Below are positions 1-35,450 of a stretch of 64,000 nt of DNA, one piece after another. Origin of the DNA: Candidatus Hydrogenedentes bacterium UBA6118 (GTDB lineage: Bacteria; Hydrogenedentota; Hydrogenedentia; Hydrogenedentales; SLHB01); NCBI GenBank assembly GCA_002422525.1, contig DIWA01000063.1:9920-73919 (forward strand). Reading direction: 5' to 3'. The first letter of the stretch is position 1; the number at the start of each line of letters is the position of its first letter. The notes below the pieces were generated by a model. The model was given only the letters and a program-made list of their open reading frames with translations, had not been told where the DNA came from and ran no database searches. A program made the translations under genes and the position numbers.

Positions 1-3000
1 TAGAAGCGGAGCTGCACCCGGTCGTCGAAGTTGCGGCCGAAGACCGTGAAGTACACCGAGTCCGCCGCACTCGGCGCCTCGCCCGCGGCCGGGTCGGCCG
101 CGCCTGCGTCGCTCGCCTCGCGCGAGACGAAGTTCGGGCGCACCTCCGTGATCACGGGCGGCCCGTCGGACACGTAGGTGTAGGCCAGCTCGTCCGGCAG
201 ATGGATCTCCAACACGTGGTCCGGGAACGCGGCGTCGTCGACGACAAGCGTCACGGGCACACGCCCGGCCAGGCCGCCGAGCGCCGGCGGCGTCACCACC
301 AGCAGCGATCCCGGCTCGCTGTCGCCCACGGGCACGTCCGGCGCGATATAGTCGAGGCCGTCGCGCGCCGTGTAGGTCTCGCCGATCTCCAGCACGCGGC
401 CCTCGACATCGCCGAACCGCACCGCCGGCAGCACGCCGCCGCGGTTGAACCCGGCGCCGTCAAGCTGCACCAGGTCGCCGCCGTCCACCACGCCGTAGCG
501 CGCGTCCGGCACGCCGGCCGCCGCCAGGTCCGCCCGGAACAGGTCCGTCACCTCCGGCGCCACGTAGCTCGGGACGAGCACGATCGCGCCCTCCAGCCGA
601 TGCGCCAACGGATTCCCGTCTTCATCCAGCGCCGGCTGGTGCGAACCGTCGTCGTGAAACACCTCAACGTCCAGCGGCACGTTGTGGTTGGCCGCCAGAC
701 CGAGGACCGGGTCCGGCTCGAGGTCCTGCACCACGAAGTCTATCCGCGACGGGGGCGACACGGCGTAGTCGGCCACGTGCGTGCCGCTCAACAGCGGCAC
801 CGCCGTCTCCGTGCCCGTGTCGTCCTGCGCCCAGACGCGCACCCGCGTGCCGTCCTCGAGAAGCTGGTACAACTGCACCGCATCCACCACCGTGCCGAAG
901 TTCGACGGGTAGTATTCGTCCGGATGCGCGAGTCGGATGGTCGTATTCGGATCCGTCGCCGTGAAGGCCATCGACCGGATCGTCCAGCGCATGTTATTGG
1001 GCAAAGTCCTCCCGGACGGTCGCGCGAACTCAACCGTCTGACCGCCGCCGGCGCTCGCATACGCGATCACGCGGCCGAAGCGCGCGTCCGTCACGTTCAA
1101 TTCGGGATGGACGCCGTGGGCGAACACCAGCTCGTAGCGGCCGCCGGGCGTCGTCGCCACGGACTGCTCGACCGAACCCACGTCATCGTAGCGCGGTATC
1201 AGGTGGACAAAGCGGTCCCCATCGTATGCCGGCGCGTCGTCCGCGACGACGTACTGGATGCCGTCCAAGCCGATGTCCCAGCCGGGCAACGCCGTGGATC
1301 CGGGCGGGAGCTCGGTCGTCGTCGCGGGCCCGTCCTCGAAGCTCGCGTTGTCCAGGGGTTCCGGGACGCGTACGAGCGACGATCCCGGCGGGATGAAGTC
1401 GGACCCGAGCAGGGTCACATCGATGCCGCCGTTCAGCGGGATCAGGCGCGGCGACACGGACCACAGCCGCGGCGGCGCAAGGACGTCGTCCGCATCCGTC
1501 CGCGGGACCCAAATCGCGCCCTCGCTCACCCAGTAGGCCGGCTCACCGCTCTGGTTATACGTCGATTCCTCGGGCAAGAGGAGCAGGACGTCCAGCGTGC
1601 CGAACTTGCCGGACGGCAGCGCCTGCGAGACGTTGAAGTAGACATCCGACTCGCCGATCCACGGCGCCGGGCCCACTTGCGTGATCTCCTCCGGATCAAC
1701 CTCATGCCCCCCGACAAACAGGCGCATATCCGTTGTGCCGAGCCAGTTCCGCACGCGCATGCGGTATTCGAAGTCCTGGTACGCGGCCGGCGTGCCTCCC
1801 GGAACCGTCGCGTCGCGGTGCACGCCCGCGATCGAGTCGACCTGCAAGATCTCGAAGTAGAGCGACTCGCCGGACTGAATGGTCTGGTTCGCCGGCCGGT
1901 TGGCCGCGTAGATCATCGCCGCCGAGACGGTCTTGACGTCGCCCGCGGCGTCGGTCGGGTTCCCCTCGACATCGAGCGCGTTGCGGACCTCCACCTCGAG
2001 GATGCGCGGCTCCGTCCCGAACACGTTCGAGAAGCCGGGGCCGTAGTCGCCCGGAAGCAGCGGAACGTCCAGGTCGATGCCCCGCTGCGTGTGGCCGCGA
2101 TGCTCCTCCACGACCTCCGTCGGCATCACGATGCCGTCGCCCGCCGCATCGACGATCTTCTCCCCGCCGGACGCCGGCTGGCGGAACGTGATCGCGAGGC
2201 CCGTGTCGAACCCGGCGCCCAGCAGCGTGCGCGGTTGCGGATCCGGCGCGACAGGGTAGACCGTAGTCCCGATGGTTACGAAGTTCGACGGCCGCCACAC
2301 CGCCGCGACGTCGAGCAGCTCGCCGCCGGCGCCGACCAGACGCCCTCCATCGAGCCCGGGCGCGCTGTCCGCGTAATAGGTGAACCCGTTGGCCAGCACG
2401 TCACGCTCGCCGTCGTAGTTGATCACTTCCACGTCGTAGGCGCCTGCCGCGCCGAACTCGGCGACCGGAATCACGACGTCGCGAATCTCGTCATAGGAGT
2501 CGCCGGCGGGGTTATCGGGTCCCTGGCGCAGCTCGGCGTAGGGGCAGACGATCCCGCCGATCTTGACGATCACCGGATGGGGTTCGCCCCCGTCAAAGGC
2601 GCCCGGGCCGATGTTCCAGCCCACGATGTCCGCCGTGAACGCGCGGTCCGCCGGATCCGCCTCCGGGTCCGCGTCGCCGGGCGTACCGCCCAGATCGCGG
2701 TAGTAGTTGGGCGAGATCTCGACCACGTCCAGCCGCGGCCCCTCGGTCGGGTCGACGTATTGATACTCCTTGAGCGGTCCCGCGGGACTGGTCGCCGACG
2801 GCGGGCCGGGGTTCACCACGAGCACGTCGATCTTGTCGGTGGGCGTCGTGCGGACCGGGGCCTGCACATACAGCTTACTGGACGACAGCCAGAGCACGCG
2901 ACCGCTCTCCTCATCGGGATCGGGCGCTTCGTCGCCGTTGAAATCGAAGTAGACCCGCGCGTCGCGCTCGAACCCGGATCCGATGATCGTGGTCCAGTTG

Positions 3001-4484
3001 CCGCCGCGCTGTTCGGGGTCGATCACATCGGTGTCCGTCCAAACCGGTCCCGTTTCCGGGATCGCCGCCGCCACCTGCGGCACGGTCGACGCGGATCCGG
3101 TGTACGTGAAACCGAGCGGAACCATGAACGCCAGACCGTCGTCGCGGATCAGATGCACGTTAACCGGGCCGGGCTTCGCCAGGTAAGACGCCGGCGCGGT
3201 CACCTCGATCATGTCGACCGTGCTGTTCGCCGCATTCACGGTCGCGGCCGTCTCCGCCCGCGAAGTGGGCCCGAAAAAGACGCGCACGGCGCCGACCGCC
3301 GCGTCATTGGTCGCGAGGTTGTTCCCGTGGATCCGCACCACGGTCGGCACGTTGTAGATCCCGTTGTCGGGCTCGAGGACGATCTCCTCGTCCGCCCACA
3401 CCAGACCGCCTTCCTCCGCGAACGGCGGGGCATCATCATCGGCGGGCTCGGCCGGATCGCGGCCGTCGCCGTTCCCGTAGACGATGGTGTTGCGCACGCG
3501 CGCGTTGGCGCCCGTCTCCACGTAGACGCCGTAGTCCTGGTTCAGCAGCACCGTACAGAAGAGAATGTCGGTGAACAGCCCGGCATCCGGATCCGCCGGC
3601 GTCTGGACCCACACGCCCGCCTTGCTCGAATACTGCTTGTCCAGCCAGCGCTCCATCCAGGGAGGCGTCTCGTCGTCCTCGCCGAGGCCGAAGTCCTCCG
3701 GCAAGGCGTTGCTGTAGCCGCCGATCACGCAGTTCACCAGCAACGGCGCCGCGTTGCCTTCCACCAGCACGCCCGCGCTGGCGCCGCCGGGCAGCATCAG
3801 CGCCTGCGACGCCCCGAGGATGATGCATCGGCTCAGCGTGGGTCGGATCGCGGGCTCGCCTTCCTCGCTGCCCTGGATCCGCACCCGGTACGGCCCGTTG
3901 CGGATCGTCAGCCCTTCGATGAGCACGTTGCTCAGTCGTTCCTCGAACGTCGCCGCGCTGTCCTCGGCGCCGGGGGTATAGCGGTAGTACATCCACGGGT
4001 CGGAGGCGCCGTCAGGCGCGCGCTCCGTATGGATCTCAAACACGCCGCTGCTGTCGTCGACCCCGCCGCCGTCCACGGTCACCATCCACGGGCGCCCCAC
4101 GGCGCGCTCGTCCTCCTGATCGTCAGGCGTCAGGCCGATCACATGGATGTTCGCGTCGCCGGGGATGCGGATCGGAGCCGTCTCCGTGTACTCGCCCTGC
4201 TCCACCCACACCGCCACGCGCTCGCCCGTCTGATAGGCTTCCTCGAGCGCCATCTCGACGCCCTCGCGAACCGTGGCGGCGTCCGCGGCGGCATTGTCAT
4301 CGCTCACGACAACCGTGTTCGGGGGAATGACCGGCGGCAACTGGGCCGCGGCGAACGGACTGAACGCGCAAAGCAACGCGGCCAGCGCCGAAACGGTCGC
4401 GAACGCGCCGCGGCGGGACGCGGCACGCTCCACGCTGAGATGGCGCCCTCCGGTCCTGAATCGTTCCCAGAGTCGATGCCGCAT
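1..4484 (-). CDS. Giant secreted protein (>1494 aa, runs off the left edge): N-terminal right-handed parallel beta-helix-like region, multiple IPT/TIG-like repeats, and a DUF642/choice-of-anchor-C-like domain
   Basis: Not in the ORF track because there is no stop inside the window. Translated by hand from ATG at 4484 (AGGAG 9 nt upstream; alternative in-frame ATG at 4493): MRHRLWERF...SRRGAFATVSALAALLCAFSPFAAA|QLPP. Beta-helix-like rungs include SNVLIEGLTIRNG, PTLSRCIILG, PLLVNCVIG, YGVYV and VRNTIVYGN. Seven IPT/TIG-like G-x-x-F/L motifs (VVRIHGNNL, WTTIIGSGF, TADIVGWNI, RTLLGAGF, DVTLLGSDF, LVQLDGAGF, YFTVFGRNF). NASFEDG...GWDIG...VEQSVATTPGGRYELVF...MRWT..AFTAT..TTIRL...VDAV lies at ~862-1349. 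The frame read open wherever checked, down to base 3. Confidence 0.85.
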   Translation of the reverse strand, partial: MRHRLWERFRTGGRHLSVERAASRRGAFATVSALAALLCAFSPFAAAQLPPVIPPNTVVVSDDNAAADAATVREGVEMALEEAYQTGERVAVWVEQGEYTETAPIRIPGDANIHVIGLTPDDQEDERAVGRPWMVTVDGGGVDDSSGVFEIHTERAPDGASDPWMYYRYTPGAEDSAATFEERLSNVLIEGLTIRNGPYRVRIQGSEEGEPAIRPTLSRCIILGASQALMLPGGASAGVLVEGNAAPLLVNCVIGGYSNALPEDFGLGEDDETPPWMERWLDKQYSSKAGVWVQTPADPDAGLFTDILFCTVLLNQDYGVYVETGANARVRNTIVYGNGDGRDPAEPADDDAPPFAEEGGLVWADEEIVLEPDNGIYNVPTVVRIHGNNLATNDAAVGAVRVFFGPTSRAETAATVNAANSTVDMIEVTAPASYLAKPGPVNVHLIRDDGLAFMVPLGFTYTGSASTVPQVAAAIPETGPVWTDTDVIDPEQRGGNWTTIIGSGFERDARVYFDFNGDEAPDPDEESGRVLWLSSSKLYVQAPVRTTPTDKIDVLVVNPGPPSATSPAGPLKEYQYVDPTEGPRLDVVEISPNYYRDLGGTPGDADPEADPADRAFTADIVGWNIGPGAFDGGEPHPVIVKIGGIVCPYAELRQGPDNPAGDSYDEIRDVVIPVAEFGAAGAYDVEVINYDGERDVLANGFTYYADSAPGLDGGRLVGAGGELLDVAAVWRPSNFVTIGTTVYPVAPDPQPRTLLGAGFDTGLAITFRQPASGGEKIVDAAGDGIVMPTEVVEEHRGHTQRGIDLDVPLLPGDYGPGFSNVFGTEPRILEVEVRNALDVEGNPTDAAGDVKTVSAAMIYAANRPANQTIQSGESLYFEILQVDSIAGVHRDATVPGGTPAAYQDFEYRMRVRNWLGTTDMRLFVGGHEVDPEEITQVGPAPWIGESDVYFNVSQALPSGKFGTLDVLLLLPEESTYNQSGEPAYWVSEGAIWVPRTDADDVLAPPRLWSVSPRLIPLNGGIDVTLLGSDFIPPGSSLVRVPEPLDNASFEDGPATTTELPPGSTALPGWDIGLDGIQYVVADDAPAYDGDRFVHLIPRYDDVGSVEQSVATTPGGRYELVFAHGVHPELNVTDARFGRVIAYASAGGGQTVEFARPSGRTLPNNMRWTIRSMAFTATDPNTTIRLAHPDEYYPSNFGTVVDAVQLYQLLEDGTRVRVWAQDDTGTETAVPLLSGTHVADYAVSPPSRIDFVVQDLEPDPVLGLAANHNVPLDVEVFHDDGSHQPALDEDGNPLAHRLEGAIVLVPSYVAPEVTDLFRADLAAAGVPDARYGVVDGGDLVQLDGAGFNRGGVLPAVRFGDVEGRVLEIGETYTARDGLDYIAPDVPVGDSEPGSLLVVTPPALGGLAGRVPVTLVVDDAAFPDHVLEIHLPDELAYTYVSDGPPVITEVRPNFVSREASDAGAADPAAGEAPSAADSVYFTVFGRNFDDRVQLRF

Positions 4485-4647
4485 ATCGTTCATCTCCTGT
4501 CCCGCTCAGCCCCGATGCGCGCGGGTTGTGTATCCGTATGTCCGCCCCGCCGTCTCCCGCTCCGCGGGAAGGCATCGGGCGGCCCGGCGTCTATGTTGCG
4601 GGCGAGCCGCGACGCGCAGCGACTGCACGGGCCCGCCGCCTCGCCAT

Positions 4648-7600
4648 CTATCGCTCGTAGACCGTCCGGATCTTCTTCTCGCCCGTCACGACGAAGCGGT
4701 TGCGCCAGTCCACCACCCGGACCGGCGTCCCCGCCGCGTCCTCGACATCCAGCACGGCGTCGTTCGTCACATAGCCGGACTGACCCAGCACGATCACCTC
4801 GAAAACGTCCGAATGCGTCGTGACCAGGTTCGACAACCGCGTGAACCGCTGGATCTTCTCGTCATACACGATGGGCGCCATCGGGTCGGTCTCGTCGGGC
4901 CACTCCGTCGGCTCGACCCAGTCCACCGGCCACAGGTGACTCAACCGGCCCGTGCGGAGGATGAAGGTCGGATCGACCAGCGGCTCGGTCGGGTCGGCGG
5001 CCAAGGCCCCGAGACCGCGCGTCAGCAGCTCGGCCGCGTTGCGGTAGTATCGGCCGTCGTAATGCGCCGGCGCGGAGCTCTCGATGCCGGCGGCCACCCC
5101 CTGCGCGTCCACATAGAACGCCTCGGACGGACTGATGCCGTCGAGTTCGCCGGGAAAACTCAGGACCAGTCGCGGCGGGTCGCCGACTTCATCGACCACC
5201 GTCCGCGCACGCATCAGCGCGCCCGGCGCGCCGACCAACGGGTTCAGCGGCTTCGTGCCGCCATCGTAGTCCAGGATGGCCGTGGCCGCCGTGTTGACGT
5301 TGACCTTGCCCGGCGTGCGTCGGCTCGACGTCAGGATCACCCGCGAGAACCGGTTCAGCCGGCCGCCCTGCGCCCAGTTCCGCAGCAGCAGCGCGAGGTA
5401 GTTGTTCTCAACCGTCACCTGACCGTAGTAGACCAGCCCCTCGGTGGACGGCTCCGGCGCCACCTGAAGCCCGAACGACTCCTGCGGCGCGAGCGGATCG
5501 CCCGTGATGCCGCGGTTCATCAGCGCCGGCGCGGGCGCGTCCGCACCCGACCAGCACCGACGGTTGCCGTCGCGGTCCGTGAAGAACTCGACCGTGATGC
5601 CCATCTCTTCGGGACGCACCCGCTGTTCGATCAGCGTCTTCGGGTCGAACCGGTCGTCATGCGCCGCGGCCGTGGCGAACAGATCGCCCACGCGATCCGC
5701 GTCGATCCCCGCCAGCCGCTCGTACACGTCATCCAGCCGGCTCAGGTCGTCCATCGTCACCACGTAGACGTCGTAGGCCCCGTTCTCGAGCCCGTCGTCG
5801 CCGTCCCACACGAACAACGCCTCGGCCGGGGGCATGTCGTCCGGCATGCTCCACAGATCGACGTCGTTCGGATCCACATACGAGCCGTCCTCCTGCGTGG
5901 GCTGGAAGTCCTGCGGGTTCATCGACACGTACATCACCGTGCGCCGCAACAGCGACCACCGCGCGCGCAAGGCCGCGTAGTAGTCCGTCACCCCGCCCGG
6001 CGTCGTCGGATAGCCCGGTGGGAGCAACCGCGGCGAGTCATAGGGGTCGGCGGGGGGATCCCGTTCGAGCCGCGGACGGAACAGGAAGTTGAGCTGCACC
6101 GGCACGTCCATCGCCGCGGTCGGGTCGACCTCCGCCAACGGCTGCACCGAGCCCATCGCGTACGTGTCCTCCAGCCCCGGATCCGTCACAAGCGGGTCGT
6201 CGGGCAAGGGGAACAGGAAGATCGGCGTCCACGCGCGCGGCCGCACGTTCGGGTCGCCCGGCGTGGTCACGTCGTACCACTCGATGAACTCGGTGTACTC
6301 CGCTTCGGTGTATGCGGCGGGGTCCGGCCACAGCGGGTAGAAGTCCGCCTGCCCCGCCGTCAGGGTCAGCGTCGCGTGCGTACCCGATTCGATCAGCTTC
6401 TCGAGCTCGCGCACCGAGTCGTCCACGCCCGCATCGAACAGCACGCCGTTGCGACCCATCAGCACCTTGTCCAGCCGCTCGACGGCCGCCGCGTCGGCGC
6501 CGAGAAGCGCCGTCATGCCGAACTGGTGCAACGTCGCGAGCTGGCCCGGCGTCGTATACGGCCGGTTGCGCACGTTCGCGCGCGGATGTTGCCACGCCAG
6601 CACGTCGTTCTCGATGCGCGTCGCCGTGATGTCCCCGGTCTCCACCGTGCGGTGGAGGAAGTTCATCCGGCCCGGCGTGCCCGACAGGCCATGGGTCAGG
6701 TCCGCCCGGATAACGTCGGCGTCGACGGGGTCGGGCTGGTACCAGACGCCGTCGCCGAAGTAGAACGGCCCTTGCCCGCCGTCCCACTCGTCATAGGCGC
6801 CGTCGGTCGCCTCCCACCGGTTCGTCGTGCCGGCGAGGTCGCCGTGGTACAGCGGGTGCTTGCGCTCGAGCGACCGATAGAAGTCGATCCCCATCGTGTT
6901 TTCAGGCCACATGCGCAGATTCGCCGGATCCAGCGCCGCCTCGCCGTTCTCGTTCACGTAGGGGCAGATCACGCCGTCGTCCAGCGCCCGGTTCTCGACA
7001 TCGAGCTGGGTGTAGGTGACCCGGTCAACGACGCGCGCCTCCGACTGCGGCCCTTCGTACAACGTCACGAACACCGCATCCCCTGGGAAGAACCGCCGCT
7101 CGATGAACCGCTTCCAGTCCGGCGGATCCGCGGCGCCGCCGAGGTAGTCGCCGCTGAGCACTTCGAGGTCGTCGAGCTCGGTACGGAACGCATGGTTGAC
7201 CGGATCAGGGTGATAGGCGCCCGGCACGGCCACGGGCACGCCCGCCCGGCGCGCTTCGAGCAGGTATCGGCCTTCGTCGACCCCTTCGTAGGCCTCGTCG
7301 ACGCCCAGGTTGTCGAAATCCGGGTTGCCGGCGGCGCCAAGATACTCGAACGCGCCGCTGAACTGGTCATAGCGCAGGTACGACGTCCCGGAGTTGTCCA
7401 CGCCGTCGTTGCTCAGCACCGAGTTGTCCAGGTCATTGTCTTCCCAGTCCTCCTCGGGCGCGTTCGGGAACACCCCGCCGTCGAGCACGACGCGCGCGAG
7501 CTGTGCGAGCCGCGCGGAGGGGTTCGTGCCGAGCCGATCGAGCGAGATCTCGCTGAGCTGCACGATCCGGTCCCACGGCTTGCGCGCCTCGGACCCGAAC

Positions 7601-10600
7601 GCCGGTTCGAGGTCCGGTCCGGGGTAGTTCGCCGGCCAGTCGTTCGCCGTCGACTGGATCCGCCACTCCACCGGGAACGGCTCGATGATCTGCTCCAGGT
7701 CTGGGTCGAACCGGAAGTCGTCATTGATGGCGTAGTCCACGCCGCCGACGTTCACAACCACTGGAACGCCGGAGTTGCCCAGCAGCGCATCGCCATCGGC
7801 GTCGAGGAAGTCGACCCACTCGTTCACGCTCGCCAGGCCGGTTTCGGCATCGTGCAGCGGCAGCGCCAACGGCGTCCGGAAGAAGATGCTGTCCCCAAGC
7901 GGCCGGTTGATCAGCAATGGGTCGTCGGCCACGCGGAACGGTCGCACCGGCGGGAATGGGGGCACGGTGATCTGCGCGGCCCGCGTGCCGGCGACGCCGA
8001 ACATGGGGAACATGGCATCGTCATCGGTCGCGGCCAGGCCGATGCCGTTCCTGCGCAGCACGCTCAGCGCCGAGAAGTCGCCGTCGGCCGATGTGCTCTG
8101 GTTGAACTTGTCCGCCCCGACATCGAACTTCGTGACCGCGAGGATCAGCGAACCGCCGGGGGCGATCCGCGTGCCCTCGGGCACGGTGAACAGGCGGTGG
8201 TGGCGCTGGGTCGCCGTGCGGCCCACCTGCAGCCGCCAGTCCGACATGTCGATGTACTGGTCCTCGATCGGGCGCACGGGATCGACCGCGGCGACGTTCA
8301 CCACCTCGACCCACTCGTGGTCCGGCTCCTGGCTGAACTCAAAGTAGTTCACGACGAGGTCATCGTTGAGCGGATCGCCGGTGGTGTATTGGGGATCATC
8401 GCTCTTCCAGACTCCGAGATACAGGTACTCCTGGTCCGCCGGATCCGCCGCATACTCCGGAATCACCACCGTGTACGCGTAGAACTCGTCGCGGTTGCCG
8501 TAGGGCGCCAACCGCCCGTCCAGCGTCGGGTCGGGCTCGGGCAGGGACGGCAGGAACACCATGCCGGTCTCGCGTTGGGCGCCGTCGACGTCAGGCCGCG
8601 TGCCGATGATCGGTCCGTCGCCCGCGTCGCCCTTGTGCACCACATTGCCCGCTTCCATCATCGGCTCATAGTCGTAGCCGACGTCGGGCAGGACGTCCTG
8701 GAAGGCGCCGCCGCCGAGGAAGTCCAGGTAGTTGATCTCGGACCCCGTCACGAACCCCACGGCGTCGCTCAGGATATCTTCGTCCGCCTGGCCGTACTTG
8801 ATCACGTAGTTCAGCTTGTTCTCCTGGCCTTGCAGCATCGTCGTCGTGGCGGCGTCGCCGTTGCGCGTCACGTTGGCCAGCAGATAGTAGCGTCCCGGAG
8901 GCAGACCCGGTCCCGGACCGAACCGGAACTGGATCATGTTCGGCGTCTCGTGCCACTCGTCGCCGAACGCCAGCGGCGTGGGCGGCGGCGCCGCGATCGC
9001 GACCGTCGTCGCGGAGACGTCGTTGATCACGTTATCCGCATCCACGAAGCGCGAGGAGAAGCTGACGTACGATCCCGCGCCCAGGTGATAGGCCTTCGGG
9101 TCGCTGGCATCCTCGCCAGGCATGTAGCGTCGACCGGCGACGGCGATGGAAGGCGCCGCGGGCACGCCGTAGCTCGATCCGGGAGGGAGGGGATCGAGAC
9201 CCGTGTCATTCACCCACACGGGCCGCCCGTCCCAAAGGCTCCGCGCCGGGTCGATGGGCACGGTGTAGTTGTCGAAGGTGTGCAGGTTGCTGGGCCCGTT
9301 GCCCGCCGCGACGATCCGGTCGCGCGGCAACGTCGCCTGCGTCATGTCGAAGTCCAGCTTGCCGTAGTCGTCGACGAACTCCTGCGGCGTGAAGTAGTTC
9401 GGGTTGAACTGCTCGGCGAGGCGATCCTCGAGGATCTCGCCGCCGGGCACGTAGGCCCACCGAAAGAGCTGCGGATCCGGCGGCGCGAGCGTGTTGTACA
9501 TCTCCGCCTCGATCCGGCGGACGGGGCGCGCCATGATCTCGTTGATGCGGATGCTCTCGATGCCCGCGCTGGTGTAGTTGATGCGCCGGTTGACGCCGAG
9601 GCCGACGTCCGCGGCCCAATCATCGCCGGTCGACGACGTCAGCGTGGTCCGCGCGGCGTCCGGGTCGCGGTTGTCGGTGATGTTGACGGCGGTCTGCTGG
9701 ACCCGCAGGACCGGGTCGATCTCGAACGACGTCGGCCCGGACGGCCCGAGCAGCGGCGCGGTCGCGTCGGACTCGAACCGGACGCCTTCGACCCGCAGCC
9801 CCTGAGCGAACCGTTCCGCCGCGGTCAGGGCCGGGTCGGACGCGAACCGCGGCCGATAGCCGAGATCGTTGATGGTCGCCGTGGCGATCTGCGACGGCGT
9901 CGCGAGGTTGTAGTTCAGCTTCAGCCCCGACAACGCCGGCGCGTCGCCTTCAAGATTGTAGCGATAGTTGCGGTCCGCCGAATGCACCGTCAACTCATTG
10001 CGGTTGCGGCTGAACGTGGTCCCGCCGATGCCCGTTACGAGCTTGATCTGTTCGCGCGTGTAGTACTGATGGTCGCCCAGTTCGCCCAGTTCGTCGGTCT
10101 TCGTGTCGCCGAACGGCGCATCGTTGTTCACCCCGTCGCCTTCCGCGACCAAGTTGCGATGCGGCCGGAACTGACGCTGCTCTTCCGGCGCGTCGATGCC
10201 CTCGAACTGCCCCAGCAAGTACTGGTAGCGATCGTCGTAGCCGTCGTCGACATACTCCGAGAACTGGATACCCAGCAGACCATCATCAAGGTCGTGCAGA
10301 AGCTCCCCGGTGTAGGGGTCAATCAGGTACAGACGACCCTTGTCGAAATCGATCTCGCCGTCGCCGTCGAGATCGCCCGCCTTGGGCAGCGCGAACCCTT
10401 CGTCGATCAGGCCGTCGCCGTCGTTGTCGATGCCGTCGTAAGCCATCCAGAACGCGTCGCCGTCGTCATCGACGCGGCCGTACCCCGGCAGGTTCGCGTC
10501 GTAGACATACGGAACGGCCTCGACAGCCGCCAGCCGGTCGTCGTCCGGATAGAAGTAGTCGCCGCCGGTCTGCACGCCGGGCTCGGTTGGGAACGTGCGC

Positions 10601-20281: not shown

Positions 20282-22147
20282 CTAGTCTGCGGCGGCCCGA
20301 TCGCCGCCCTGTTTCAGCGGTTCATCCTGATGGGTGACCCGCAACACTTCTTCCAGGGTGGTGACGCCTCGGGTCGCCTTGAGCCAAGCGTCCTCGCGCA
20401 GCGTGTGCATGCCTTCTTTGCGCGCCGCGCGGCGGAGCCGCGCCGAAGAGGCGCCCTGCATGATGAGCGTACGCACAGTGTCCGTCGTCATCATCAGCTC
20501 ATACACGCCCTGCCGCCCCTGATAGCCCGTTCCCGTGCAGTTCTCACAGCCCTTGCCGTAGAACAACTCCACTTCGTCTGGGTTCACAGGGAAACCGAGT
20601 CGCTCGAGCGACTCCTGATCCGGTTGGATAGGCGCCTTGCAGGTGGTGCACAGCGTGCGCACGAGGCGCTGCGCCAGCACCACGCGCACGCCCGAAGCCA
20701 CCAGGAATGGCTTCATGCCGATATCCACCAGGCGGATGAATGCGCTGGGCGCGTCGTTCGTGTGGAGCGTACTGAACACCAAGTGGCCTGTCAGCGCCGC
20801 ACGCACGGCGATCTCCGCCGTCTCCTGGTCACGAATCTCACCGACCATCACGATGTCGGGGTCGACGCGGAAGATGGCGCGGAGCGCACGCGCGAAATCC
20901 CAGCCGATCTCATGCTGGATCTGCACCTGGTTGATGCCGTCCATCATGTACTCGACCGGGTCCTCGATGGTGATCAGCTTGTTCTTGACCGTGTTGAGCT
21001 TGTGAAGCGAAGCGTAGAGGGTGGTCGTCTTGCCCGAACCCGTGGGCCCGGTCACCAGCATCACGCCCGAACCCTGCCCAAGCAGGCCCTCCCACTTCTT
21101 CTGGTCGTCCGGGTTGAACCCGAGCTGCCCCAAACCGAGCGTCAGGCCGCTCTTGTCCAGGATACGCATGACGATCGTCTCGCCGTACACGGAAGGAAGG
21201 CAGCTCACGCGCAGGTCGAGCATCTTGCCGCCGATGGTGATCTTGATACGTCCGTCCTGCGTCACCCGGCGTTCGGCGATGTCCATCCCGGCCATGATCT
21301 TGAGTCGCGAAATGATCGACGGCTGCGCCCGTTTCGGCGGTCGCGGCATCAGATGCAGCACGCCGTCGATCCGGTACCGCACCTTGAGGTCGTACTTCCC
21401 GGGCTCGACGTGAATATCACTCGCGCGCAGCCGGAACGCCTCGGTAATCAGGTTGTGCACATAGCGCACCACCGGACTGTTCGCGTCGTCCCCGTCGTCA
21501 TCGAGGTTGCCGCCCCCGCTCCCTACCGACTCCTCGTCAAAGTCGACGCTGTCTACGCTGATGCTGCTCATGCTGATGTCGCCCGCCGACATGCTCGAGG
21601 CATCCAGCGAACTCACATTGGACATCGTGCTCAGCGTGCTCATCGAGCTGGCGCTGCTCACGGTCGACAGCATGGACTCGACGGTCTGCTCCCCCACACC
21701 GTAGTACCGCTGCAATGCCGATCGGACATCTTCCTCGCTCGCGAGGCTCGGTTCGATCCGCGCATCCAACAGCCGCTCCAGGTTGTCGATGTTGTTGATG
21801 TTCGTGGGGTCCGACATCGCCAACGAGATCGTGTTGCCGTCTTTGCCGAGAGGAATCACACGGTACAACGTCGCAATGTTGGGGTCGACGAGATTTCGGA
21901 CGCGCTCGGGGATCTCGCGCTCCGACAGATTGACCACGGGAATCCCCAACTGATCGGCCAGACCCTCCGTGATGTGGCTCTTGCTGATGTAGCCCATCCG
22001 AACGAGGATCTCGCCGAGCTTCCGGTGGGTCATCGACGATTGCTGCCGATGTATCGCTTCGTCGAGCTGCTGCTGAGAGATGATATTGCGCTCGACGAGC
22101 CGCTGCCCGAAGAGGCTGTAAGTCTGCTGCTGCTGCACGTCTAGCAC
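20282..22147 (-). CDS. pilB: PilB/GspE-family assembly ATPase 1 with MshEN-type N-domain and Ser/Met-rich linker
   Basis: KLGEILVRMGYI; RASDIHVEP; GPTGSGKTTT; FRVDPDIVMVGEIRD; TGHLVFSTLHTND; LCTTC...GCENC. GTG start with AAGGGG RBS. Confidence 0.93.
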   Translation of the reverse strand: MLDVQQQQTYSLFGQRLVERNIISQQQLDEAIHRQQSSMTHRKLGEILVRMGYISKSHITEGLADQLGIPVVNLSEREIPERVRNLVDPNIATLYRVIPLGKDGNTISLAMSDPTNINNIDNLERLLDARIEPSLASEEDVRSALQRYYGVGEQTVESMLSTVSSASSMSTLSTMSNVSSLDASSMSAGDISMSSISVDSVDFDEESVGSGGGNLDDDGDDANSPVVRYVHNLITEAFRLRASDIHVEPGKYDLKVRYRIDGVLHLMPRPPKRAQPSIISRLKIMAGMDIAERRVTQDGRIKITIGGKMLDLRVSCLPSVYGETIVMRILDKSGLTLGLGQLGFNPDDQKKWEGLLGQGSGVMLVTGPTGSGKTTTLYASLHKLNTVKNKLITIEDPVEYMMDGINQVQIQHEIGWDFARALRAIFRVDPDIVMVGEIRDQETAEIAVRAALTGHLVFSTLHTNDAPSAFIRLVDIGMKPFLVASGVRVVLAQRLVRTLCTTCKAPIQPDQESLERLGFPVNPDEVELFYGKGCENCTGTGYQGRQGVYELMMTTDTVRTLIMQGASSARLRRAARKEGMHTLREDAWLKATRGVTTLEEVLRVTHQDEPLKQGGDRAAAD

Positions 22148-22682: not shown

Positions 22683-23378
22683 TCAGTCCGTCGCGTCCAG
22701 TTTGCTGAGATACTCGGCCGGAGCCGCCTCGATGGCCTCAACGCACGCCGGGCAGCACAGCCGGACGAGCCGTCCCGCAACCACCTTGTCGACGGGTTCG
22801 CCCATCGCGTCGAGCGACTTGCCGCTGACGACACAGACCGTCTGGGGATAATCCGCCTTCTGGTCTTCCACGACGGCATCGTTCAGCTTGGCGATGTACG
22901 ACGCCGGGTCGTCCTCGAACTTGCCGACGCACCCCGCACAGCACAACCGCACGAGCCGGTTCTTGTACACCAGCTCCACCGGGCCGCCCATGGCGTCCAG
23001 ATCGCCGCCGCCGACCACGCACGTCGTCAACGGATAGAGGGGCCGCTGCTGCTCGGCGATGGCCAGGTCCGCCTTCTCGAGAACGCCGGCGGGATCGGCT
23101 CTGAGCTGGGACTCACACCCCGCGCAGCACAGCCGCACCTCCCGACCATCCACCTCCACGACCGCCGGATCGCCCATGGAGCCGAGCTTCTGTCCGGTCA
23201 CGGGGCAGAAGTCGAGCAGGTAGGGATCGCCGTCCCAGGCTTCCGCCTTCTTGGCGCCCTTGTCCGACTTGGCCGAGGCCGTCTCCGACGCTTCTTCAGC
23301 CAGCGCGATCGGCGTCACAGCCAGGAGCGCCAGCGCCAACGTAAGGGCGGCGGTCCGTGTATTCACAATGTGTTGCAT
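22683..23378 (-). CDS. Periplasmic heavy-metal-binding protein with three TRASH/YHS-like repeats
   Basis: GGAGG RBS 8 nt before ATG at 23378; signal peptide (...LLAVTPIALA|EE); three C-x-V-x-G...L-C-C-x-x-C units (CPVTG..LCCAGC, CVVGG..LCCAGC, CVVSG..LCCPAC). Confidence 0.8.
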   Translation of the reverse strand: MQHIVNTRTAALTLALALLAVTPIALAEEASETASAKSDKGAKKAEAWDGDPYLLDFCPVTGQKLGSMGDPAVVEVDGREVRLCCAGCESQLRADPAGVLEKADLAIAEQQRPLYPLTTCVVGGGDLDAMGGPVELVYKNRLVRLCCAGCVGKFEDDPASYIAKLNDAVVEDQKADYPQTVCVVSGKSLDAMGEPVDKVVAGRLVRLCCPACVEAIEAAPAEYLSKLDATD

Positions 23379-23493
23379 GGTGTCTTCCTCCATCGGGTTC
23401 GGGGCATCAGACGCCCCAGGTCGTCCACAGCGACGCGGCCGGCGCACGGCAACAGGCGCGCGCGCTCCCGCGCCGGTATGCCCACGGCCCGCG

Positions 23494-25053
23494 CTACTCG
23501 CGCGCAACCGGTGATGGGTCCGTCTCGTCCTCCGCGGCCTCCCGATCGCGCGGTGCGATCGGCTCGGCCGGATCGGCGGTCTGCGGATCGGAAGCGGCAT
23601 CCTCCGTCCAGGGCCCGCCCATGAGGTACTCCAGACGCGCCGCGGCCAGCCGACGGTCGCGGTCGGCCTCGAATCCCGCCAGCTCGTACGTAAGGATTCG
23701 CTGCACGCTCTCCATCAGATCCACGAACCCAGCCGTACCATGGCCGACGGCGTAGCGCCCCTGCAGGCTCTCGAACGTCTGCCGCGCCTGCGGCAGGAGG
23801 GTCTCCCGGTACAGCGCCCGACGGCGTTCCGCATCGCTGAGCTCGAACATCGCCTCCTGCACGGCGGCGTCGATCTCGAGAGAAGCCTTCCGTTTCTCAT
23901 GCACCACGGCCTTCTCCATCAGCCGCGCCTCGGCGACGCCCGCGCGGATCTTCTTGCGCCAGATGGGCAGATTGACGCTCACCGACAACACGATGTCGTC
24001 CTCCCCGCCGTCGGAGTAGTTCATGGGTTCGAAGGTCGTGGCCAGCCCATAGGCGTTGATCGAAGCCCGGGTCAGGTTGAACGGCGCCGCCCCGGACAGC
24101 ATGCCGCCGAGCCCCTCGAGCGCCATCAGCGATCCGCTCCCGATGCGGTCGGGCAGCATCTCCCTGGGCTTGCTCTTCCCCATGTACTCGAGACCCACCG
24201 TGACGTCCGGAAAGCCCGCCTTCCGGGCGACCTCGGCCTGCTTCCGCCGGCCTTCGGCGAGCCGATCGAACGCCTGCAACGAAGGATTCGCGACGCGCGC
24301 GCGGGCCAGGGCCACCGGCTGCGGCGGCGGCGACGCCTCGGGCGGGCTCGGCGTGTCGGCGGAATCGGGCCCTGTCGCGGCCAGCTCCGGCCACGGGAAC
24401 TCCGGCCCCGGATCGCGCCCGACCGCGGCAAGCAGCCGCCCCGACAGGGCCGGGCGCATGTCGTGCAGCCGTTGGTAGGCGTCCTCGAGCTCCGCTTCCG
24501 CCATCGACACGCGCAGCAGCTCGTCGTCGCCCGCCAGCCCGAGCGCGAGCTTCGAACGCACGATGTCCTCGACGTAGGCCAGCACCTCGGCCTGCGACCG
24601 GGTCGTCTCGATCCGCTGTGCGAGGAAGGCGTACTCGTAGTACGCGCTCTTCACCTCCGCGACGACGCGGTTGCGTGCGTCGAACAAACGGCGCAGCACG
24701 GCGTCGGCCTCGGCCTGCGCCTGTTCGCCGCGCAGACGACGCGTACCGGACCACGGAAAGCGCTGGCTCAGCATCACGCGAAAGCGGTTGATCTCGGACT
24801 GCAGGAACTGCCCGTAGGTGAACATCGGGTCGTCAAGCGCGGTGACTTGCGGGATTCGTTCCAGCGCGGCCAGCCACTCCGCGTGCAGCGCGCGCACACC
24901 GGGGCTGCGCTCGACGGCTTCCGCCAGCAGACGCCCCAGTTCCTCGGTCTCGGCGCTGTACACGGCCCGAGGAAGGTCGGACTCAACGACGTCCATCGTC
25001 GAGACGCCGGCGGCGCCTGAACTCACAAAGACAAGCAGAAGGGGGACGATCAT
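23494..25053 (-). CDS. TolC-family outer-membrane factor of the heavy-metal RND system (CusC/CzcC-like)
   Basis: Signal peptide; LSQRFPWSG, VAEVKSAYYEY, FPDVTVG, SVNLPIWR; ATGA overlap with cusA. Confidence 0.88.
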   Translation of the reverse strand: MIVPLLLVFVSSGAAGVSTMDVVESDLPRAVYSAETEELGRLLAEAVERSPGVRALHAEWLAALERIPQVTALDDPMFTYGQFLQSEINRFRVMLSQRFPWSGTRRLRGEQAQAEADAVLRRLFDARNRVVAEVKSAYYEYAFLAQRIETTRSQAEVLAYVEDIVRSKLALGLAGDDELLRVSMAEAELEDAYQRLHDMRPALSGRLLAAVGRDPGPEFPWPELAATGPDSADTPSPPEASPPPQPVALARARVANPSLQAFDRLAEGRRKQAEVARKAGFPDVTVGLEYMGKSKPREMLPDRIGSGSLMALEGLGGMLSGAAPFNLTRASINAYGLATTFEPMNYSDGGEDDIVLSVSVNLPIWRKKIRAGVAEARLMEKAVVHEKRKASLEIDAAVQEAMFELSDAERRRALYRETLLPQARQTFESLQGRYAVGHGTAGFVDLMESVQRILTYELAGFEADRDRRLAAARLEYLMGGPWTEDAASDPQTADPAEPIAPRDREAAEDETDPSPVARE

Positions 25054-28000
25054 GGGTGGGACTCCCCGCCATCTCGGCGTCCGCGCGGTCTGAGCCGCGG
25101 CGCCTTCAGGGCGATCTCCTGGGCCGTGCAGTAGAGCACCGGCGCCAGGAACAACGTCAGCAGCGCGATGGCCATGCCGCCGAACGACGGGATCGCCATC
25201 GGGATCATCACATCAGACCCGCGCCCCGTCGACGTCAGCACCGGCAGCAGCGCGAGGATGGTCGTGGCGGTCGTCATCAGACACGGCCGGATGCGGCGCA
25301 TCCCCGCTTCCAGCACGGCGGCGCGGATCTCGGTCGTGCTGCGTGTGCGGCGCGCGGCGAACGTCTGGTCGAGGTAGGTCGCCATCACGACGCCGTCGTC
25401 GGTGGCGATCCCGAACAGCGCGAGGAACCCCACCCAAATCGCCACGCTCAGCAGGACCGGTTGCACCCCGAACAAGTCGCGCAGGTTCACGCCCCACACG
25501 TCGAGATCCAGGAACCACGGCTGGCCGTACAGCCACATGAGCAGGAAACCTCCCGACCAGGCGACCGCGATGCCCGTGAACACAATGAACGTCGTGACCA
25601 CGGATCGGAACTGCAGGTAGAGGATCACAAAGATGACGAGCAGCGAGACGGGCAGCACCACCGCCAGCGTCTTCTGCGCGCGCACCTGGTTCTCGTAGTT
25701 CCCGGCGAAGCTGTAGCTCACGCCCGACGGCAACGACCACGCGCCCGTGTCCAGCAGATGCTCGAGGCGGTCGCGGCACGCCTCCACCACATCGACCTCG
25801 GCGTAGCCCGGCTGCTTGTCGAAGGTCACGTAACCGACGAGAAACGTGTCCTCGCTCTTGATCATGTCCGGACCGCGGACGTAGCGAATCTCCGCCACCT
25901 GCGACAAGGGGATCTGCGCGCCGTCGTCCGCGGCGACCAGCACGCGTTCGAGCGATTCGATGTCGTCGCGCAATTCGCGCTGGTACCGCACGCGGACCGG
26001 ATAGCGTTCGCGCCCCTCGATGGTCGTCGTGAGGGTCCGCCCGCCGATCGCCGTCTCGACCACGTCCTGCACGTCGCCGACACGCAGGCCGAACCGGGCG
26101 ATCGCCTCGCGATCGATGTCGATCTCGAGGTACGGCCTGCCGACGATGCGTTCCGCATAGACCGTCGCCGGCTCAACGCCCGGCGTCTCGCGCAGGAACC
26201 CCTCGATCTCCTGCGCCACGCGTTCGATCGTCGCGAGGCTCGGTCCGCGCACCTTCACCCCCATGGGCGCGCGCATGCCGCTCTGGAGCATGACCAGCCG
26301 CGTGGCGATCGGTTGCAGCTTCGGCGCGGACGTCGTGCCGGGGACGGACCCCGCGCGGATGATCTCCTCCCAGATGTCGTCCGGGCTCCGGATCTCATCG
26401 CGCCACTGGCGGAACGGCAGGCCGTTGGCGTCCGGGATCAGATCGCCTGCCGCGTCGCGCGCGAACGCGCCCGCATCGTAGTCGAAGCGAAACCGCACCC
26501 GCCGCCCGTCGGCGTCCGTTCGGTACTCCGGCTTGTATTGGATCACCGTCTCGATCATCGAGATGGGCGCCGGGTCAAGCGCGCTCTCGACGCGCCCTAT
26601 CTTCCCCACGGCCGTGTCCACCTCCGGGATGGCCGCGAACGCCCGGTCCTGCAGTTGCACGACCTCGAGCGCCTCGCCCAACGACGCATGGGGCATCGTG
26701 GTCGGCATATACAGGAAGGACCCTTCGTCGAGCGGCGGCATGAACTCCCGGCCGAACCCAGGGAAGGCCCGCTCCAGCGCGGAGACGAACGGCAGCTTCC
26801 GCACCGGCTCCGGCAGATGCCGCAGCGCGCGTTCCGCTCCGATCCAGGACATCGCCCCCAGCGCCAGCAGCGCGGCCGGCAATGCGACGTAGACGAGTTT
26901 GTGGTCGAGGAACCACCGCAGCAGCCGGGGATAGGCCCAGTAGAATAGCTGGAACCCCCCGAGGAGCCCCCCGGCCAGGAGGGACACGAAGATCAGGTTC
27001 GCCGCGAACCCGCGCCCGGGGCCCAACGGCAGCCACTGACTCGTCAGGACCACGGTAACCGCGATCGCGGCGACGGCCGTCGCCAACCGGGCGCCCGATC
27101 GTCGCACCCACGCGGGCAGGCGGTCCTCCGCAAGGCCGTACGCGCCCATGAGCACGAGGACCAGCCCGAGCTGCCACGTCAGCGCGACCATCGCGCCGAT
27201 CCCCGCAACGGCGAGCGCGGCCCAAGCCGTGCGCCGGACAACGCCGTTCTCGATGCGGCCGGCGAACAGGAACCGGGCCAGCACGGGCAACACGGTGAGG
27301 GCGATCGTCACGCTGGCGAGCAGCGCGAAGGTCTTCGTGAACGCCAACGGCCGGAACATCTTGCCTTCCGGACCGGTCATCGCGAAGACGGGCAGAAAGC
27401 TGACCACGGTGGTCGCGATCGCGGTGAGCACCGCGCCCCCCACCTCGCGCGACGCTTCGTAGACGACCGTCGCGCGGTTCGCCCCCGGCGGCGCATCGTC
27501 GAGGCGTCGCAGGATGTTCTCGCACAGGATGATGCCCATGTCCACCACGGCGCCGATCGCGATCGCGATGCCCGACAGCGCCACGATGTTGGCGTCGATG
27601 CCGCCGAGTCGCATCGCGATAAAGGTGACCAGCACCGCCAACGGCAGCACGGCGCTGATCAGCAGCGCGCTGCGCAGGTGCCCCGTCATCACGATCACCA
27701 CGAGGACCGTGATAAGGATCTGGAGCGAAATCGCGTCGGCCAGCGTGCCGAGGGTCTCCTGAATCAGCGTCGTGCGGTCGTAGTAAGGCGCCACCGTCAC
27801 GCGGCTCGTCGTCGCCCAGTCGGGCCAGGATGCCCGCGGCGTCGCCTGCAACCACGCCAGCCAGCCGTCCTGGTTCAGGGCGCCATCGAGAAATGCTTCG
27901 AACCCTTCATTCCGCGCGAATCGGCTCACTTCCTCGGCATCGACGGCGTCGTAGTCGATCACGGCCTTCACCGGCAGTCCGGGCGACACCTCCGCGATCT

Positions 28001-30948: not shown

Positions 30949-31101
30949 CTCGCACTCCTCTGACACCAGTTGCGATCCACGGGAAGACAGGCGACGCTGG
31001 ACGCGAGCAGGGGCGAGGGGCGCTTGGCAAAGCCCGATCGCCGCGCCTATCCACGACGACACAGCACGCCCGGCCGCGTCAGCGACGCAGGGCGAGGCGG
31101 A

Positions 31102-34700: not shown

Positions 34701-35303
34701 GACGGCTTCCATGGCCTCCGCGATTGGGGCCGCCTCACGCAACGCCGCGTCGTCAAACAGAACACGGAACGGCTTCAGCGCGGGGTTCTCGATCGCGAGC
34801 TGGAGCAACGCGATCTCGCGCAAGGCCTCATGCGTCGCGGGCTCCGATCCCGGCCGCCCCGCCAGGTAGGCCGCCGGGTCCTGCCAGCCCTTGGCCACGG
34901 CGAACGGGGGAAATGCATCCGCGAACGCCTCGAAAAGCCGGTGGACCGCGCCTGGACTCCCCAAAGCCGACGCCAGCGCGCGCAGCGCCTCCTCCGACGC
35001 CCGCGGCCGCTGGTCGCACGTGTACAACCGGAAGACGTACCGCAGCACGTCAACCACTACGCCGGCGGTGAGGAGATGACCGGGCCGAACAGCCGCGTCC
35101 GAAGCGTCGCCGCCGAACCGCTCGTTCACCCGCAGGGCGATCTGGCCCGCGATCGGCGCGAGTCCGCGCGGATCGGCTCCCGGCGGATCAACCAGAACCG
35201 CATCGAGGTCCAGAACGCGCCAGGCCTCGCGACTGAGGTGAAGGCCCAACGGGTAGGGCGACTCCCCATCCGCGCCGTCAAGCTGTGCTGTCCAATCTTC
35301 CAT
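31710..35303 (-). CDS. Large alpha-amylase family (GH13) glycoside hydrolase
   Basis: GFTGLWLIGLWE, LASDMVPNH, IRFDAAM (nucleophile), LAEAFW (acid/base), FMNNPDE. Start probably MEDW (35303) or MLAA (35315); the track's N-terminal 133 aa overlap the divergent promoter. Confidence 0.88.
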   Translation of the reverse strand: MEDWTAQLDGADGESPYPLGLHLSREAWRVLDLDAVLVDPPGADPRGLAPIAGQIALRVNERFGGDASDAAVRPGHLLTAGVVVDVLRYVFRLYTCDQRPRASEEALRALASALGSPGAVHRLFEAFADAFPPFAVAKGWQDPAAYLAGRPGSEPATHEALREIALLQLAIENPALKPFRVLFDDAALREAAPIAEAMEAVEAFYRDQPPVELVGDDLFATLRAPMRAAPDSLEGQLEYIRAHWGRLLPAWLIRRIIRTRDILREETRDRGFGKDVVEVLAFGRGLGGASDYPEPERFTHDAEWMSELVLIAKITYVWLDQLSRAYGRAIQRLDEVPDEELDRLARRGFTGLWLIGLWERSTASEEIKKRMGNAEAAASAYSLYDYTIAADLGGEPAYLRLKERARQRGIRLASDMVPNHVGVFSRWVVEHPDWFIQCAEPPFPGYRFTGPNLSPDPRVAVQIEDGYWNRSDAAVVFKRVDTASGDTRYIYHGNDGTSMPWNDTAQLNYLLAEVREAVIKTILHVARLSPVIRFDAAMTLAKKHYQRLWFPLPGEGGAIPSRSLYSMTRQEFDRAMPEEFWREVVDRVQAEAPDTLLLAEAFWLMEGYFVRTLGMHRVYNSAFMNMLKMEENLKYRMTLKNVLEFSPEVLKRFVNFMNNPDELTAVEQFGRGDKFFGVSVMLATLPGLPMFGHGQVEGFTEKYGMEFRRAYWHETPDQGMIARHKREIAPLLRRRRLFCDIRHFVLYDLIHPQDYVDENVFVYSNRHGDERALVVYNNAYAPTRGRIHTSAAINFGSAEDQDLRRLTLSEALGLRDASDVFYLFRDSRDGLQYLRRGASLAHDGMYFELAGYQYHVFLDFEEIVDTDHVWSRVCDRLNGRGVPDIQRVFRETVLAPMLETFRLVLNSRTLTDFTRSLHEPKRQAPVRKAVIKALRMYLDVAESESGIAIDAEPALRSADRDLAAIQRIAPETEVPAVVAEGQARSAEEGAPVPRTDKRDAKQVAEEEERAQVLFWRIPVTWALTRHLEGMLGLGAMSDYGAGWMEHWLLTTPIRQAYVELGRSEAEAHDDSHLVMLLVRHTASLLAAYDEEPAHFLEEILEDDISRAYLGVNEHAGRYYVRKEPFEAAMRWLRLTAAVAIHAEDGLDETDRRALVASRDRCVEAAIEAAEAAGYDIGGMLDRLRGRVEEKVEGVAPV

Positions 35304-35450
35304 GGCGGCAAGCATACACAAGCGGCCCCGCCCGCCGCCAACGCCAGAGCGCCGCCGACGCCGAACCGCCCCGGGGCCAGGCCCCGGATACGGCTCTCCA
35401 TGCACCTGCAGACAACGCACTTGGGGCCATCTGCACCGGGGATTTGGCTC

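Follow-up and report, generated by a model that had tools for sequence, protein, structure and literature searches.

The window analysed here is a 64,000-nucleotide stretch of contig DIWA01000063.1 from Candidatus Hydrogenedentes bacterium UBA6118. At its first base it cuts through a gene (the target gene, minus strand) that follows directly upon the minor pilin genes of a type IV filament locus. Our analysis identifies the product as a real, complete, secreted-type protein of 2,625 residues and as a member of an unnamed family, which stands in the place, and probably plays the role, of PilY1, PilC or MshQ, yet is unrelated to PilY1/PilC and probably also to MshQ. We regard it as about an even chance (roughly 0.5) that the target is a Sec-exported accessory protein associated with the tip of a retractile, type IVa-like pilus and has a PilY1-like role. 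The family fits the PilC/PilY1 template, in which a terminal strand is added to a minor pilin, because of its gene position, export signal, size, conserved C-terminal part and conserved terminal peptide.

Tip proteins determine what a type IV pilus adheres to, and to our knowledge this role has so far been assigned only to PilY1/PilC and, by prediction, to MshQ. Hydrogenedentota are common in anaerobic digesters, and the phylum has no cultured model. The family, its C-terminal module and its pairing with a giant K-like (GspK/PilX-like) pilin are undescribed in the libraries and literature that we searched, and a search of the literature on pili in Hydrogenedentes/Hydrogenedentota returned nothing relevant. 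The locus is likely to encode a surface- or polymer-binding organelle of these bacteria, and the family offers a direct test of how general the rule of docking by a terminal peptide is.

Reading frame and completeness of the target gene

1..4484, minus strand: target gene, codons 1-1,494 of 2,625 (remainder beyond window base 1; ATG at 4493 as alternative start)
4485..4647, minus strand: intergenic spacer between the gene of the giant K-like pilin and the target gene (read from the sequence; spanned by an RNA contig, 4124-4893)

On the minus strand, the frame read from 4505 is free of stops as far as base 1 (1,501 codons). The window has a GC content of 69% and long open frames on both strands, and the length of an open frame alone is no evidence of coding, because an equally long plus-strand frame is also open here; coding status was judged from the codon pattern, homologues, RNA and assemblies together. 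GC by codon position in the target frame (0.69-0.74 / 0.47-0.49 / 0.88-0.91) is the pattern of a real gene in DNA of 69% GC. We considered the plus-strand open reading frame (ORF) 201..4823 as a real gene and ruled it out, its GC peak at codon position 1 (0.9) marking it as an antisense shadow. The same contrast in codon GC separates the pair 4648..11994 (minus) and 4273..12312 (plus), of which the plus frame is again the shadow. Both shadow ORFs (201-4823, plus, 1,540 aa, and 4273-12312, plus, 2,679 aa) lie opposite giant genes and are present in the mechanical ORF list, from which the true target gene is absent. A preliminary description of this DNA, made from the letters alone, had explained this absence solely by the gene running off the window, which proved right.

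Bases 1-4484 show 0 mismatches against three assemblies of independent origin (one from ENA, JGI 3300002498 and one from Logan), which were recovered by exact look-up of the target's upstream neighbour and extend the target to a stop codon, giving the 2,625-aa product. No hidden stop or frameshift was found in the window frame or in the three assemblies; together with the codon-position GC, their identity establishes the unbroken ORF that the preliminary description had assumed. The start at 4493 that it gave is possible, but AGGAG lies 9 nt upstream of the ATG at 4484 and directly abuts the ATG at 4493, which makes 4484 the likelier start. Anaerobic digesters have yielded metatranscriptome contigs, 95-99% identical, that extend over about 2000-5400 (about 2000-4600 for the region of the target), the target is seen in three metatranscriptome runs at a depth similar to that of the pilB/pilC genes, and one RNA contig (4124-4893) crosses the junction between the K-like gene and the target; these are contig data, in which contaminating DNA is possible. 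A promoter-like site and a minus-strand terminator were sought in the spacer 4485..4647, and neither was found.

A conserved C-terminal module with exchangeable heads

The family is defined by a C-terminal module of ~890 aa (C-module) that lies outside the window, which holds the variable half only. An exhaustive search of 1.84 billion proteins with the C-module profile (query: target residues 1591-2625) identified 139 representatives at 50% identity, 70 of them at E<1e-30, whereas word-indexed homology searches returned 4-8 proteins each; the family is visible only to the exhaustive profile search. The C-module matches nothing in Pfam or NCBIfam, and PDB sequence relatives were found neither for its profile nor for the part of the target within the window. 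In public records the relatives come from Candidatus Hydrogenedentota/Hydrogenedentes and from one metagenome-assembled genome of the 'FCB group', and are annotated as hypothetical, TIG (IPT/TIG) or beta-helix proteins. Annotation by domain names alone (TIG, beta-helix, DUF642) thus misses the module that defines them.

Lengths in the family cluster at 1,000-1,300 and 2,000-2,600 aa. In the compact members of ~1,050 aa the beta-helix is joined straight to the C-module, and a BLASTP comparison with one of them (P0009, 1,062 aa) aligns its residues 133-248 with target residues 173-338 and its residues 263-1062 with target residues 1626-2625. Because these matches flank the array of immunoglobulin (Ig)-like and DUF642 domains, the array (~1,250 residues) is a lineage-specific insertion that parts the beta-helix from its closing segment. 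The closing segment ends with DIGADE and resembles the choice-of-anchor-Q motif that trails beta-helices (weak match in P0046); it came out disordered when modelled with AlphaFold2 (AF2) without the N-terminal part. Heads preceding the C-module in 43 compact members contain Beta_helix (29/43) or TIG arrays (9/43). The layout of the family is therefore a signal peptide, a swappable head, the conserved C-module and a conserved tail.

An AF2 model of the C-module built from 9 sequences was unusable (pLDDT 39), and a model from a 73-sequence alignment (pLDDT 73.4, pTM 0.70) was used throughout. It is mostly beta, with several sandwich domains of pLDDT 80-97, including the surroundings of the invariant motifs GRHF.IDT.PP, DRAGN and GADEAGNVE. 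Foldseek matched the C-module in the PDB only to tandem Ig/fibronectin type III (FN3) chains (gp130, cadherins, S-layer proteins; TM 0.1-0.27), and in a viral library only to generic Ig/FN3 tandems. A PilY1 propeller, which the preliminary description had named among several features to look for at the C-terminus, is missing: the full protein has no Pfam match to one at E<=1, and none occurs among the Foldseek matches.

The variable half within the window

4344..4484, minus strand: Sec-type signal peptide, residues 1-47 (...SPFAAA followed by QLPP; read from the sequence)
3390..4343, minus strand: first part of a right-handed parallel beta-helix, residues 48-365 (Pfam Beta_helix E 0.0028, sub-threshold)
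3087..3389, minus strand: Ig-like segment T1, residues 366-466 (Pfam TIG E 0.0098; hhalign to T7 96.9%)
2745..3086, minus strand: Ig-like segment T2, residues 467-580 (Pfam TIG E 0.028; hhalign to T7 93%, to T8 92%)
2361..2744, minus strand: Ig-like segment T3, residues 581-708 (hhalign to T7 94%, to T1 91%)
1899..2360, minus strand: Ig-like segment T4, residues 709-862, weak (hhalign to T8 59%)
1485..1898, minus strand: Ig-like segment T5, residues 863-1000, weak (hhalign to T1 and T7 36%)
555..1484, minus strand: Ig-like segment T6, residues 1001-1310, split by DUF642 (hhalign with the insert removed, to T1 78%)
855..1364, minus strand: DUF642 / choice-of-anchor-C-like domain of carbohydrate-binding type, residues about 1041-1210 (Pfam PF04862)
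159..554, minus strand: Ig-like segment T7, residues 1311-1442 (Pfam TIG E 0.031; hub of the hhalign links)
1..158, minus strand: start of Ig-like segment T8, residues 1443-1595, cut at the window edge (hhalign to T2 92%; full sequence from locus L001)

The N-terminus carries no prepilin G-F-T-L-x-E (GFTLxE) motif. Family relatives have similar Sec-type N-termini, and Q48, the first residue after the signal peptide, is invariant across four giant members. Export by the twin-arginine (Tat) pathway, prompted by the sequence SRRGAF, was considered and rejected: the RR pair is not kept in relatives, and a multidomain protein of 2,600 aa is an unlikely Tat substrate.

Several features named in the preliminary description were recovered. 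Its beta-helix-like N-region is sub-threshold in the target itself and clear in aligned relatives: P0009 scores 45.6 bits with Beta_helix, and target residues 173-338 align to the region concerned. Its DUF642-like domain passes the Pfam gathering threshold (PF04862: 37.5 vs 27 bits, E 2.5e-9, model positions 2-156 of 157) and reaches 41.6 bits when its segment is scanned alone; the choice-of-anchor C model TIGR04362 matches with E 2.5e-13 at 50.6 bits, under its cutoff of 120. At least seven IPT/TIG repeats had been proposed. We find eight Ig-like segments, of which T1, T2, T3, T6, T7 and T8 are clearly TIG-related, being interlinked at 78-97% probability in a profile-profile comparison of 18 giant homologues; T4 (59%) and T5 (36%) fall short of this. 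Over the whole protein TIG (PF01833) scores 34.1 bits against a gathering threshold of 20.9 (E 2.7e-8), while single repeats are weak (E 0.01-0.03). What did not survive is the picture of a long stalk presenting a lectin head, given that the Ig array is an insertion and that the DUF642 domain is nested within one Ig domain, with its columns occupied in only 2 of the 18 giant representatives, namely the target (P0001) and a 70% relative (P0002); in P0003 and P0004 T6 lacks the nested insert. At the thresholds used, the Pfam and NCBIfam scans match the target to DUF642, TIG, Beta_helix and choice-of-anchor C and to nothing else, and these matches include no sorting or anchor domain.

Conservation of the genomic context

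We compared 22 related loci, obtained from genome and metagenome collections and through exact look-up, with their ORFs labelled by comparison with the window proteins; the flanks are sufficient in ~18 loci, on which the counts of target position rest. Every locus with upstream flank has a giant K-like gene (2,000-2,600 aa) immediately before the family member, and every locus with downstream flank has a PilM-like gene after it. The order J-like pilin, giant K-like pilin, family member, (PEGA/FGE-sulfatase), PilM-like protein, p321, p161, TPR-secretin and KdtA was read in L006-L013, L015, L016 and L018-L026, and holds at 24-100% identity. The preliminary description had assigned the target to a pilY1-like slot directly after a K/X-like pilin, and both parts of this assignment are upheld, the former by the placing of the family member between the K/X-like gene and pilM in all related loci whose flanks are long enough, the latter by the matches of the upstream neighbour to GspK (N-terminus, E 1.7e-8) and PilX_N (E 2.9e-4). 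Homologues independent of the locus were also sought, and none was found outside type IV filament loci among the related loci with flank, in agreement with the earlier suggestion that the protein is a dedicated part of this filament.

This constancy bears on two alternatives. According to one, the target is an ordinary surface adhesin or enzyme that shares the pilus operon without being physically attached to the filament, as its public names (hypothetical, IPT/TIG or beta-helix) might imply. Such a protein would hardly keep a constant position between the K-like and PilM-like genes in all flanked loci, and its conserved terminal peptide, described below, would be left unexplained, so that we consider this reading highly improbable. 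According to the other, it is a part of the machine located in the periplasm or outer membrane away from the tip, perhaps a factor that assists assembly or alignment, perhaps a gate or plug associated with the TPR-secretin, needed for building the pilus and not displayed on it. The strict synteny with pilM-p321-p161-secretin agrees with this, as does the packing of the C-module as one body (pTM 0.70), and a neighbouring PEGA/FGE-sulfatase gene in most loci hints at maturation on the envelope side. Heads that range from a beta-helix through TIG arrays to an Ig/DUF642 insert of 1,250 aa are nevertheless hard to fit into a fixed place, and the very acidic composition of the target (D+E 15.8%, K 0.8%) is adhesin-like; a place of this kind seems to us unlikely.

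The gene just mentioned, encoding a PEGA and FGE-sulfatase (formylglycine-generating-enzyme-like) protein, separates the PilM-like gene from the family member (e.g. L008 17143-18585, L010 13367-14833, L011 6210-7691). A search of the window and of the flank downstream of it did not find this gene, which is missing in the window's clade and also from L006 and L007. Its product may be a maturation enzyme for tip proteins.

The pilus machine

4648..11994, minus strand: giant GspK/PilX-like minor pilin, 2,448 aa (NCBIfam GspK E 1.7e-8, N-terminus only)
12243..13541, minus strand: GspJ/PilW-like minor pilin, 432 aa (N_methyl E 1.2e-5; GspJ and Verru_Chthon C at the N-terminus)
13557..14087, minus strand: GspI/PilV-like minor pilin, 176 aa (PilV E 1.3e-7; N_methyl match)
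14089..15132, minus strand: GspH/FimU-like minor pilin, 347 aa (N_methyl E 7.5e-10; GspH E 1.4e-7)
15132..15941, minus strand: probable major pilin, 269 aa, GFTLIELLVV... (GspG N-terminus E 1.8e-13; N_methyl E 1.8e-10)
16023..17291, minus strand: PilC/GspF platform protein (Myxococcus-type PilC E 1.5e-131; GspF E 1.9e-126)
17305..19044, minus strand: PilB-like extension ATPase 2 with MshE-type cyclic di-GMP (c-di-GMP) motif (PilB E 1.1e-182; NF053729 62.3 bits vs 38)
19115..20269, minus strand: PilT/PilU-family retraction ATPase (TIGR01420 479 bits vs 319)
20282..22147, minus strand: PilB-like extension ATPase 1 with MshE-type c-di-GMP motif (PilB E 1.1e-183; NF053729 57 bits vs 38)

On the minus strand the genes thus run PilB-like, PilT, PilB-like, PilC, the 269-aa pilin, the H-, I- and J-like pilins, the K-like giant and the target. 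They continue beyond the window with a PilM-like protein of 783 aa that matches the Amuc_1101 family (E 4e-76), then two small proteins, and finally a TPR-secretin, whose nearest family is Amuc_1098. PilB, PilC and the secretin have full-length matches that score under the equivalog cutoffs. Type IVa-like parts (PilB-type, PilT, PilC, PilM, secretin and prepilin-type pilins) are present together, and because PilT exceeds its curated cutoff and both PilB-like proteins carry the MshE-type c-di-GMP motif, the machine is by its sequence matches a retractile pilus rather than a type II secretion system (T2SS). Two full-length PilB-like ATPases in one locus, with PilT between them and each MshE motif above the curated cutoff, are an observation in their own right, as is the secretin (L004 22477-24327; L006 21112-24438) with its N-terminal TPR repeats, which looks like a fusion of an MshN-type and an MshL-type protein.

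The K-like protein has 2,448 aa, compared with ~330 aa in E. coli GspK. Its N-terminus, which lacks Glu5, also matches Verru_Chthon cassette A (E 5e-6). The last ~55 residues of the K-like giants are almost invariant in 16 loci and comprise SDVFEI.V.AQ.GY, an EF-hand-like loop D.NGDG.I.Y, and DF.VTGEKK.RTVYER. By eye this end is colinear with that of E. coli GspK (WQSHIFFNRKQQSAQIYRR), although hhalign assigns the match a non-significant probability of 0.2-0.4%; the C-terminal profile hits only tetrabrachion in the PDB, a chance match. The K-like giant resembles a much enlarged version of the CpaL/TadG logic.

The terminal peptide and its precedents

According to a 2026 study, PilC/PilY1 contributes a beta-strand, formed by its last ~10 residues, to a PilK-family pilin and so licenses assembly, the same strand being supplied in cis in T2SS GspK and in CpaL; for MshQ, a 1,200-aa protein unrelated to PilC/PilY1 and encoded after mshDOP, a strand in trans is predicted (PMC13533445). 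The members of our family share a comparable feature. The near-universal consensus of the tail is QP[IV]K..E, and Q[PQ][IVL][KIQRV] stands 4-7 residues ahead of the stop in ~110 of 154 sequences; the others are mostly fragments or close variants (QPFK, EPVK, and VQVIK in the target itself). No other short feature of the family is conserved as widely as this extreme C-terminus. AF2 models the tail as coil (pLDDT 44-56) beside domains that reach 80-94, and this disorder in a monomer model fits a peptide that folds on a partner. Many compact members (e.g. P0088-P0138) carry the tail QPVKVFERE, which resembles the end RTVYER of the K-like giant; the two strands could pair, or compete for one site.

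A terminal peptide of this kind is also compatible with a secreted cargo, Sec-exported, bound to the pilus tip, pushed through the secretin and released, to act outside the cell as a free polysaccharide-binding or -degrading protein. The models would be TcpF and CofJ of type IVb pili, which are reported to bind tip minor pilins by a short terminal peptide (PMC10120004, PMC9565799, PMC6048534), or PulA-type substrates encoded beside a T2SS. The Sec signal, the absence of a membrane anchor or known sorting domain among the matches, the place in the operon and the conserved terminal peptide all suit a cargo, the beta-helix and DUF642 are typical of secreted glycan-active proteins, and the pseudopilins and the N-terminus of the K-like giant score as T2SS GspG-K. 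On the other hand, substrates rarely hold one fixed position in a machine operon at distances such as 24% identity, the conserved part of the family is a large ~890-aa module while the effector-like head is the part that is swapped, and the machine has PilT and PilB/PilC-type components and not the T2SS set. We hold release as cargo possible, without favouring it.

Proposed function

In the PilY1-like role that we prefer, the C-module and the terminal peptide would dock the target to a complex of minor pilins at the tip, including the 2,448-residue K-like member, and the growing pilus would carry the protein outward through the secretin. There the beta-helix head, together with the Ig array and the domain of carbohydrate-binding type, would bind or cut a polysaccharide or surface ligand, and the PilT motor would then pull against the ligand bound to the head.

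Several points weigh against this proposal. The evidence for placement at the tip consists of gene position, sequence comparison and a monomer model. Docking by a terminal peptide is also used by cargo that pili secrete (TcpF, CofJ). The K-like giant has a near-invariant C-terminus of its own (...DF.VTGEKK.RTVYER), and if this end serves as a strand in cis, the slot for strand addition is taken and the tail of the target docks elsewhere. As to the head, Beta_helix (PF13229) scores 12.9-17.7 bits in the target against a threshold of 25.9, and no residues of the beta-helix were identified as ligand-binding or catalytic.

A bolder version of the proposal, which we regard as doubtful, would make the family a third, structurally unrelated class of tip proteins beside PilY1/PilC and MshQ, form with the K-like pilin a tip of >5,000 residues, and cast the heads as polysaccharide lectins or depolymerases. 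If so, the pilus would be a harpoon with which an anaerobic scavenger catches or cuts polymers, and the exchange of heads would be akin to that of phage receptor-binding proteins.

Other genes in the window

Outside the pilus locus the window carries ordinary chromosomal genes (Cus-like efflux, PntAB, Nqr, PFK, citrate synthase). Directly upstream of the pilus locus lies a Cus-like heavy-metal RND efflux set (23494-31101, minus strand) composed of an outer membrane factor, an AcrB/CusA-type pump and a CusB-like adaptor with heavy-metal-binding domains, and a TRASH-domain protein is encoded at 22683-23600. Farther on, a 1,336-aa protein (31710-35720, minus strand) weakly matches the alpha-amylase catalytic domain (E 4.6e-6), a large glycan-related protein near the locus.

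Comparison with known systems

Parts of the machine resemble two known systems, with scores under the curated cutoffs in both: the PilM-like protein matches Amuc_1101 (E 4e-76) and the secretin is nearest to Amuc_1098 of the Akkermansia set Amuc_1098-1102, and the pseudopilins and the K-like N-terminus match cassettes D/B/C/A of the Verru_Chthon cassettes A-D. The K-like giant recalls CpaL/TadG and T2SS GspK in its pilin-like N-terminus, large middle and conserved extreme C-terminus; it is, however, four to seven times larger, its strand in cis is suggested only by eye, and CpaL systems have no separate PilY1-like partner.

With TcpF of the V. cholerae toxin-coregulated pilus (TCP) and CofJ of CFA/III of enterotoxigenic E. 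coli (ETEC) the target shares a gene in the pilus operon, Sec export and a terminal peptide, which in TcpF and CofJ is short and is reported to bind the tip minor pilin (PMC10120004, PMC9565799, PMC6048534). TcpF and CofJ are small proteins of type IVb pili with the signal at the N-terminus, whereas the peptide of our family is C-terminal, its members are 1,000-2,600 aa long and belong to a IVa-like system that has PilT.

The likeness to PilY1/PilC extends to the gene directly after a K/X-like minor pilin, the Sec rather than prepilin signal, the large size, the variable N-terminal part with conserved C-terminal part and extreme C-terminus, and a machine with PilB, PilT, PilC, PilM and secretin. 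The target differs in having no beta-propeller (by Pfam and Foldseek) and no sequence relation to PilY1/PilC, its C-module consisting of beta-sandwich domains, and its partner, the K-like pilin, has 2,448 aa here and may possess a terminal strand of its own. As to MshQ, from the MSHA pilus of Vibrio cholerae, no model for it matched in the Pfam/NCBIfam scans of the target at the thresholds used, and MSHA loci lack a giant K-like pilin. In both cases a large protein that is not PilY1 is encoded right after homologues of the pilins I, J and K; MshQ is predicted to give the K homologue a C-terminal strand (PMC13533445), and the terminal peptide of the target may act likewise. The ATPases here also carry MshE-type c-di-GMP motifs, and the compact members of our family (~1,050-1,200 aa) are similar to MshQ in size.

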